Part shown: positions 49,714-50,045 of the stretch, piece by piece
Layout: the number at the start of each line of letters is the position of its first letter
How positions within the stretch are numbered: the first letter of the stretch is position 1
Source: Escherichia coli
Lineage (GTDB): Bacteria > Pseudomonadota > Gammaproteobacteria > Enterobacterales > Enterobacteriaceae
Assembly: GCF_003334785.1 (NCBI RefSeq)
Contig: NZ_QOWV01000002.1
Strand: one strand, 5' to 3'
Length of the DNA stretch: 64,000 nucleotides
Notes under the pieces: generated by a model
The model's database searches: none
The model's input: the letters and a program-made list of their open reading frames with translations, nothing else
What the model was told of the DNA's origin: nothing
Made by a program: the position numbers and the translations under genes

Positions 49714-50045
49714 TCTATTGCACAACGAGGAAGCTAAAAGGCTTCCTTTGTTGATGCATGTCAACCACAAATCTATCATTCCCCCGATATATGTTTATTT
49801 TATGTAAAATCAATTTATGTAAAAAGTCACATCATTGTAGTTAAAAAGGTTGAGTTAGATCGCAGAAACGGGTACATATAGCCCCGCAAACGTGACCACG
49901 CCCGCAGATATTACTTAAATCAGAGCCATAGAGGCCACGCAGGCGAGGCATCAATCTTTACGATCTGTATAAAGACGGATTGTTGATGATGTGTTAAAAT
50001 TGATGTAAACAAATTGTGAAGTGAATGTGCTTCCGGGGAAAATAA

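Follow-up and report, generated by a model that had tools for sequence, protein, structure and literature searches.

We propose that the two exact copies of TTTATGTAAAA upstream of yejG in this Escherichia coli genome lie within yejG2, which is likely to be the upstream operator of a two-operator repression of yejG by ArcA. In the mechanism that we favour, copy 1 would supply the second repeat element (DR2, TGTAAA) of a canonical ArcA box, completed by a first element (DR1, TGTTTA) 11 bp further upstream. At low oxygen, phosphorylated ArcA (ArcA-P) would occupy the yejG2 box together with a stronger, four-repeat operator over promoter P1 (yejG1); sigma70 RNA polymerase would then leave the region and yejG would be repressed about 12-fold. 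We infer that yejG2, at -95 to -65 and held at a fixed distance from promoter P2 in a 92-bp block shared across the Enterobacteriaceae, serves P2 and that yejG1 occludes P1. Copy 2 of the repeat may form a second module with a TAGTTAA element 21 bp downstream, which would reach the UP/-35 region of P2.

The direct repeat in the bcr-yejG spacer

The window (the whole 64,000-nucleotide stretch of DNA analysed here) runs in reverse orientation relative to MG1655 and carries, in order, rsuA, bcr (48523-49713), an intergenic spacer, yejG (50046-50390) and the convergent gene yejF. With the bcr stop codon ending at 49713 and yejG starting at 50046, the spacer measures 332 bp, and it is identical in E. 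coli MG1655. The yejG gene, on the + strand, encodes a protein of 114 aa from a GTG start; it corresponds to 2277893-2278237 in NC_000913.3 and to 2275915-2276259 in U00096.2, and window positions equal 2,326,305 minus the U00096.2 coordinate. YejG itself, as the sequence-only reading of this DNA had stated, remains uncharacterised.

That reading had drawn attention to an 11-mer direct repeat, which we find exactly as described: TTTATGTAAAA occurs on the + strand at 49799-49809 (copy 1) and 49814-49824 (copy 2), 15 bp start to start, and the match is exactly 11 bp long, the bases flanking the two copies being different. Its placement in a 330-bp spacer about 220 bp before an ATG was right as to location (332 bp; 222-247 bp upstream) but not as to the start codon, which is GTG. 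Both copies share the core ATGTAAA, which in copy 1 coincides with DR2 of the ArcA box and in copy 2 (49817-49823) resembles an ArcA half-site 15 bp from DR2. The AT-rich core of the region has 20% GC. A third, degenerate copy, AATTGATGTAAA, is found at 49998-50009, and two of the three ATGTAAA motifs of the spacer fall within published ArcA sites.

A close (4-30 bp) exact 11-mer repeat arose in 0.2% of dinucleotide shuffles of the 332-bp spacer. Across the whole window three such repeats were observed, against a mean of 0.38 in shuffles; the other two are CGCCGTGGCGA at 29003 and 29033, 30 bp apart, and AAGCGTGCCGG at 37482 and 37498, 16 bp apart. The 11-mer repeat is thus improbable within the spacer but, taken alone, only modestly surprising over a 64-kb scan. 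It is because two TGTAAA cores are conserved at a distance of exactly 15 bp that we regard it as exceeding chance.

ArcA sites upstream of yejG

Copy 1 and most of copy 2 fall within a site that Park and co-workers (Park 2013, Tables S1, S2 and S4) catalogued as yejG2, a site of the three-DR class at U00096.2 2276484-2276514, whose sequence, ATGTTTATTTTATGTAAAATCAATTTATGTA, matches window positions 49791-49821 (+ strand; -95 to -65 of P2) exactly. Its 18-bp ArcA box, ATGTTTATTTTATGTAAA (49791-49808, + strand), consists of DR1 (TGTTTA, 49792) and DR2 (TGTAAA, 49803), 11 bp apart centre to centre; it was scored by Park 2013 at 17.6 bits (position 2276511), with 8.0 bits for DR1, 8.5 for DR2 (at 2276500) and 1.4 for DR3. 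The ChIP-seq peak that these authors assigned to yejG2, at 2276488, has a height of 1.9, a value from one of two replicates, and the strong yejG1 peak nearby limits the resolution of this signal. An independent laboratory (Federowicz 2014) reported an ArcA ChIP region at 2275985-2276585 that spans the repeats and was scored as repression, with a motif, TTACATAAAATAAAC, at 2276498-2276512 that is the reverse complement of window positions 49793-49807. The broad ChIP-chip region of that study covers the repeats in one of two conditions; in the other it ends at 2276443 and excludes them.

We rebuilt 18-bp and 10-bp ArcA matrices from the 114 boxes of Park 2013 Table S3, leaving yejG1 out. Positions 49791-49808 match the 18-bp matrix with 17.6 bits (training median 15.7, minimum 9.6). 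The 10-bp matrix gives 8.3 bits for DR1 and 8.2 for DR2, that is, for copy 1, whose partner is the TGTTTA 11 bp upstream and not copy 2. Eight sites in the 64-kb window reach at least 12 bits, three of them within the spacer and three others being the known rcsD, mqo and yeiQ boxes. In the AT-rich core of 65 bp, five DR-like elements reach 7 bits or more (10-bp matrix); composition-matched shuffles of this core gave a mean of 0.86 and reached five in 0.04% of cases. As a side observation, the known rcsD and mqo boxes (window 16561-23007) are 1,535 bp off the positions expected from MG1655 with the yejG-anchored offset, and this displacement indicates an insertion or deletion of about 1.5 kb relative to MG1655 between 23007 and 49791.

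The second operator, yejG1, has four DRs at 49980-50023 (+ strand) and lies over P1, from -26 to +18. The third ATGTAAA copy of the spacer forms its DR3. Park 2013 placed it at 2276282-2276325 with ChIP-seq peaks of 8.2 and 8.5 and DR scores of 8.6, 9.7, 9.8 and 5.3 bits, and our matrix, built without it, finds matches of 18.9 and 18.8 bits there. Binding of ArcA to the region in vivo and arcA-dependent repression of the gene have thus been demonstrated by others: yejG was up 11.9-fold in an arcA mutant, an effect which does not separate yejG2 from yejG1, and sigma70 occupancy at yejG was lower anaerobically (Park 2013), with sigma70 ChIP signals of 1461 aerobically and 56 anaerobically in the work of Myers and colleagues. 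The yejG gene of Salmonella is likewise arcA-dependent, with an ArcA box equivalent to yejG1. Eight promoters were footprinted by Park 2013, yejG not being among them. The induction of yejG is also pH-specific, which ArcA does not explain.

It counts against the proposed mechanism that a site at -95 to -65 misses the P2 core promoter; the ArcA-repressed operon ylaC has a site comparably far upstream, at -95 to -75. We considered whether yejG2 and yejG1 might loop the DNA between them in a conserved helical phase, and rejected this because the distance between the TGTAAA motifs, 201 bp in E. coli, varies among genera (200-212, about 151 or 95 bp elsewhere).

Transcription starts and promoters of yejG

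Both starts that have been mapped for yejG are downstream of the repeats. The mapping is due to others, by primer extension of aerobic RNA in the dPeak study: P1 at U00096.2 2276299 (window 50006) and P2 at 2276419 (window 49886, + strand), with sigma70 binding events at 2276288 and 2276432 (window 49873) that match the two. Kim 2012 placed P1 starts on the + strand at 50007 (an A; 2276298, 38 reads) and at 50018 (a G; 2276287, 58 reads). P2 is absent from the Kim 2012 set, the sole genome-wide list of transcription starts compared, and is supported by the single primer-extension study. For P1 we would read an extended -10 element in TGTTAAAAT (49992-50000). From the mapped start at 49886 and the sigma70 event at 49873, the P2 core promoter would occupy 49850-49878 (+ strand), with TTGAGT (49850-49855) as its -35 element, a 17-bp spacer containing GATC and TACATA (49873-49878) as its -10 element. 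Relative to the P2 start the repeats extend from -87 to -62, so that a transcription start lies 62-87 bp downstream of them.

Between the repeats and P2 lies TTGTAGTTAAAAAG (49835-49848, + strand; -51 to -38 of P2), which is conserved and combines two overlapping ArcA-DR-like elements with an A-tract that resembles a proximal UP element. The P2 core promoter has a mean identity of 0.90 across genera; its TTG is kept in 80 of 80 species, TACATATA in 78 and GATC in 73. Positions 49850-49882 are near-invariant across genera, including the 17-bp promoter spacer TAGATCnCAGAAACGGG, whose GATC is a Dam site. Since promoter spacers are not normally conserved, a second factor may bind here. A CRP-like box, TGCGATCTAACTCAAC, was listed at 49849-49864 by Shimada 2011, and a SELEX peak of the RpoH holoenzyme is centred at window position 49853; recognition of P2 by sigma32 seems doubtful, that peak being weak (3.1) and the promoter spacer longer than is typical.

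Conservation and natural variation

We collected yejG orthologues with their flanks from 80 species. Over 31 non-Escherichia genera the 92-bp block 49791-49882 has 86% identity to E. coli, with 46% in the flank upstream of it and 37% between P2 and P1, which places P2 of yejG among the most conserved non-coding stretches of the neighbourhood. The block reads TGTTT[AC]-N5-ATGTAAAA-N7-[AG]TGTAAAAAGTCAC-N4-TTGTAGnTAAAAAGGTTGAGTTAGATCnCAGAAACGGGTACATATAG. Of 81 species, 80 have the TGTAAA of copy 1 and 78 have DR1 11 bp upstream of it, and in 77 of 80 the ArcA box of yejG2 reaches 12 bits or more. What this work establishes for yejG2 is its matrix score, its conservation and its spacing: the box is locked at a fixed distance from a conserved P2, and yejG2, weak in ChIP, is as well conserved as ArcA operators with strong ChIP peaks. 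It is for this reason that we consider yejG2 probably functional.

Conservation in relatives also extends to the repeat as a pair: 71 of 81 enterobacterial species have two TGTAAA cores whose distance is exactly 15 bp. The seven bases between the cores are variable, and only 30 of 80 species retain the whole 11-mer of copy 2; what selection preserves is therefore the cores of about 7 bp and the distance between them rather than the 11-mer. Copy 2 has lost its TGTAAA in the Klebsiella oxytoca group, Intestinirhabdus, Franconibacter, Siccibacter, Serratia and Erwinia, where the AAGTCAC that follows is mostly kept. The outgroups Erwinia and Serratia retain copy 1 (and Erwinia the ArcA box too) and are missing copy 2.

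Among 5426 complete E. coli genomes, 5275 match the 101-bp block with an identity of 99% or more. One of the 5426, EC24.26 (NZ_CM186189.1), carries an exact 15-bp deletion, equivalent to 49799-49813, which fuses both copies into one and leaves the ArcA box intact, 15 bp nearer to P2.

The idea that the direct repeats mark a regulator site thus holds in so far as they fall in a published ArcA site within a promoter region; that the pair spaced by 15 bp is itself the recognised unit is not supported. The repeat is conserved and a mapped start lies close by, and neither observation counts against the sequence-only reading. The site is not a new lead, however, since it is already in the literature (Park 2013; Federowicz 2014): yejG2 is a rediscovered, already catalogued ArcA site, in which only the out-of-phase copy 2 is left unexplained.

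Copy 2 and alternative regulators

As a single DR, copy 2 scores 7.4 bits with the 10-bp matrix (training median 8.0), about as good as DR1 and DR2. Park 2013 did not call it a DR and gave the in-phase DR3 1.4 bits; over that scoring and ours, an in-phase DR at yejG2 reaches 1.4-2.0 bits in E. coli, and across 80 species the median is -0.4 and none reaches 5 bits. Being 15 bp from DR2, copy 2 is out of helical phase and faces the opposite side of the helix. At putP a DR3 spaced at 12 bp is not protected by ArcA-P, and this disfavours cooperative binding of copy 2 with DR1 and DR2. Further DR-like elements follow downstream at 49835 (7.5 bits) and at 49838 (10.7 bits), the latter 21 bp after copy 2. 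Directly after copy 2 stands AAGTCAC (49824-49830, + strand), near-invariant with a mean identity of 0.95 over 31 non-Escherichia genera. Its conservation exceeds that of copy 2 and it does not correspond to an ArcA motif, which counts against the ArcA explanation. In our view the most likely role of copy 2 is to extend or modulate the occupancy by ArcA in the direction of the UP/-35 region of P2, together with the TAGTTAA 21 bp further on. Like the control of P2 by yejG2, any such role of copy 2 is our own inference.

The alternative that survives best, which we hold as a tentative minority reading, is that copy 2 and AAGTCAC(A) form the operator of another regulator of P2, with ArcA competing or acting as an anti-activator next door. 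One candidate is an activator that would bind the imperfect palindrome ATGTAAAAAGTCACAT, whose centre at 49824.5 would, by our own calculation, lie at -61.5 relative to the start at 49886, the classic position of a class I activator. This would accord with TGTAAAAAGTCAC being better conserved (identity 0.82-0.95) than anything else upstream of the -35 element, with the invariant spacing to P2, with ArcA spacing rules that disfavour copy 2 and with a pH-specific induction of yejG that ArcA leaves unexplained. However, the palindrome matched no known E. coli factor among the motifs compared, the CRP half-sites at copy 2 are 1 bp too close, with the left half matching at 3/5, and AAGTCAC mostly persists in the 10 of 81 species whose copy 2 has lost its TGTAAA, which suggests that the two may not belong to one unit. 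Somewhat more doubtful still is the broader proposal that copy 2 and AAGTCAC constitute a separate operator, used either by an out-of-phase mode of ArcA-P binding that bridges to TAGTTAA or by an activator near -61.5; either would drive P2 and be displaced or blocked by ArcA. If this were true, the operator would offer a way to learn under what conditions, and for what reason, the cell makes the pH-responsive YejG protein.

Several known factors were compared with the repeats by eye, on their consensus sequences, and set aside as leads. CpxR recognises GTAAA-N5-GTAAA and TyrR recognises TGTAAA-N6-TTTACA; at the repeats the CpxR half-sites would be separated by N10, not N5, and the right half of a TyrR box would match at 2/6. 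An IHF site at WATCAANNNNTTR has one mismatch and its ATCAA is not conserved; for LexA the CTG and CAG are missing, for the LacI family the central CG is lacking, and Fis, NarL, RstA, UvrY and the mar box gave no match. For CRP, which recognises TGTGA-N6-TCACA, binding to copy 2 and GTCACA was rejected because the spacing is wrong, the left half at N6 being TATGT (3/5) and the natural dyad having N4, and because the CRP boxes published for the spacer from genomic SELEX lie elsewhere, at 49709-49724 and 49849-49864.

It seems improbable that the two 11-mers, 15 bp apart, are bound jointly by one direct-repeat regulator, as the sequence-only reading would have it. In 71 of 81 species the two cores do keep their exact 15-bp distance, with variable bases between them, yet only the 7-8-bp cores are conserved (the 11-mer of copy 2 in 30 of 80 species); the partner of copy 1 that lies 11 bp upstream is better kept (78 of 81) and survives in outgroups that have no copy 2; and a spacing of 15 bp puts the two copies on opposite helical faces. 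Among regulators that bind tandem repeats, the OmpR/PhoB family with repeats 10-11 bp apart and CpxR with GTAAA-N5-GTAAA do not fit.

We also think it unlikely that PhoP binds TGTTTA-N5-TGTAAA and represses yejG, perhaps beside ArcA. In a Shigella phoPQ mutant yejG was up 2.7-fold by array and 3.9-fold by qRT-PCR, and TGTTTA-TTTTA-TGTAAA matches the PhoP box (T/G)GTTTA-N5-(T/G)GTTTA at 10 of 12 positions, with a perfect first half-site, TGTTTA; the PhoP and ArcA motifs evidently overlap, since the same PhoP-box search caught the known ArcA site of lpdA. Against this, the second half-site matches at only 4/6, yejG figures neither among the 38 predicted PhoP boxes nor among the 11 EMSA-validated targets of the PhoP study, and the effect of phoPQ on yejG could be indirect.

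Equally hard to credit is a repeat without a specific regulator, that is, an AT-rich A-tract serving as an UP-like or curved element or as a Fis/H-NS target and derived from a 15-bp slippage duplication: the core does have 20% GC, there is Fis ChIP-seq enrichment overlapping the region, the RpoD and RpoH holoenzymes need no other factor to bind the spacer in vitro and the exact 15-bp collapse in EC24.26 shows that slippage occurs between the copies, but conservation is base-specific (invariant cores, a varying spacer) and not what composition or curvature alone would lead one to expect, DR-like elements are enriched over composition-matched shuffles, and both ArcA binding and motif evidence are published for yejG2.

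Other elements in and near the spacer

The hairpin of the bcr terminator, AGGAAGC-TAAAAG-GCTTCCT with a TTTGTTG tail, lies at 49726-49751, and its stem is kept by compensatory changes (GGGGGCGATATCGCCCCC in Klebsiella, AGGCCCAATTCGGGCCT in Enterobacter asburiae). Directly after it, at 49751-49764, is an FNR-consensus box, TTGATGCATGTCAA, whose identity across genera is 0.75. The E. coli box deviates from the consensus at one base, and those of Salmonella, Kluyvera, Klebsiella and E. albertii read TTGAT-N4-ATCAA perfectly. The box is listed in Table S6 of Myers 2013 as a predicted FNR site that has no FNR ChIP-seq peak and overlaps Fis enrichment, and thus it is a conserved and apparently unoccupied predicted FNR site. 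A scan for consensus promoters and terminators returned only TTGATG-17-TATCAT (49751-49779) and missed both mapped promoters as well as the bcr terminator; Shimada 2014 picked the same promoter-like site, which is supported by no mapped start. About 70 bp upstream of the start that would be expected from it, GGTGATCTATTGCACA at 49709-49724 reads, in reverse complement, TGTGCAATAGATCACC, which was assigned as a CRP box from genomic SELEX. This box overlaps the stop codon of bcr, and Citrobacter retains its half-sites. Within the yejG coding sequence, GTTGAACCGATTCCGC at 50124-50139 has the form of a LacI-family-type operator and is a predicted GalR-like site. A Cra ChIP-exo site has been reported within yejG, its coordinates not being given, and may correspond to GTTGAACCGATTCCGC. 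An Rfam E-value scan of 49600-50150 gave two sub-threshold chance matches only.

Comparison with known systems

The repeats share a GTAAA or TGTAAA half-site with the CpxR and TyrR boxes and differ from them in reading GTAAA-N10-GTAAA, direct and not inverted, so that neither spacing nor orientation fits. With a PhoP box yejG2 shares an 11-bp tandem geometry and a perfect first half-site, PhoP being a response regulator of the same family as ArcA, and yejG is de-repressed in the Shigella phoPQ mutant; the differences are the two mismatches in the second half-site and the position of yejG as neither a predicted nor a validated target. With yejG1 the upstream site shares its gene, its factor and the ATGTAAA half-site variant (DR3 in yejG1), but yejG1 overlaps a promoter, has four repeats in phase and gave peaks of 8.2 and 8.5, one in each replicate, as against 1.9.

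A close parallel is found in the multi-DR operators of ArcA-P, such as those at icdA, astC, trxC and phoH (Park 2013), which likewise have two TGTTA-like repeats 11 bp apart in an 18-bp box, extra DR-like elements, an in vivo ChIP signal and a role in repressing an aerobic gene. The yejG2 site thus fits the established picture, in which ArcA shuts off aerobic genes through multi-repeat operators, and changes it little. It departs from these operators in its position (-95 to -65), which is remote from the core promoter that it presumably controls, and in the spacing of copy 2, which is 15 bp where spacings of 11 or about 22 bp have been described. Copy 2 is therefore an equally conserved half-site whose spacing falls outside the current ArcA rules, and this spacing, like the conservation of yejG2 and that of P2, could help to clarify how YejG is regulated and, in time, what it does.
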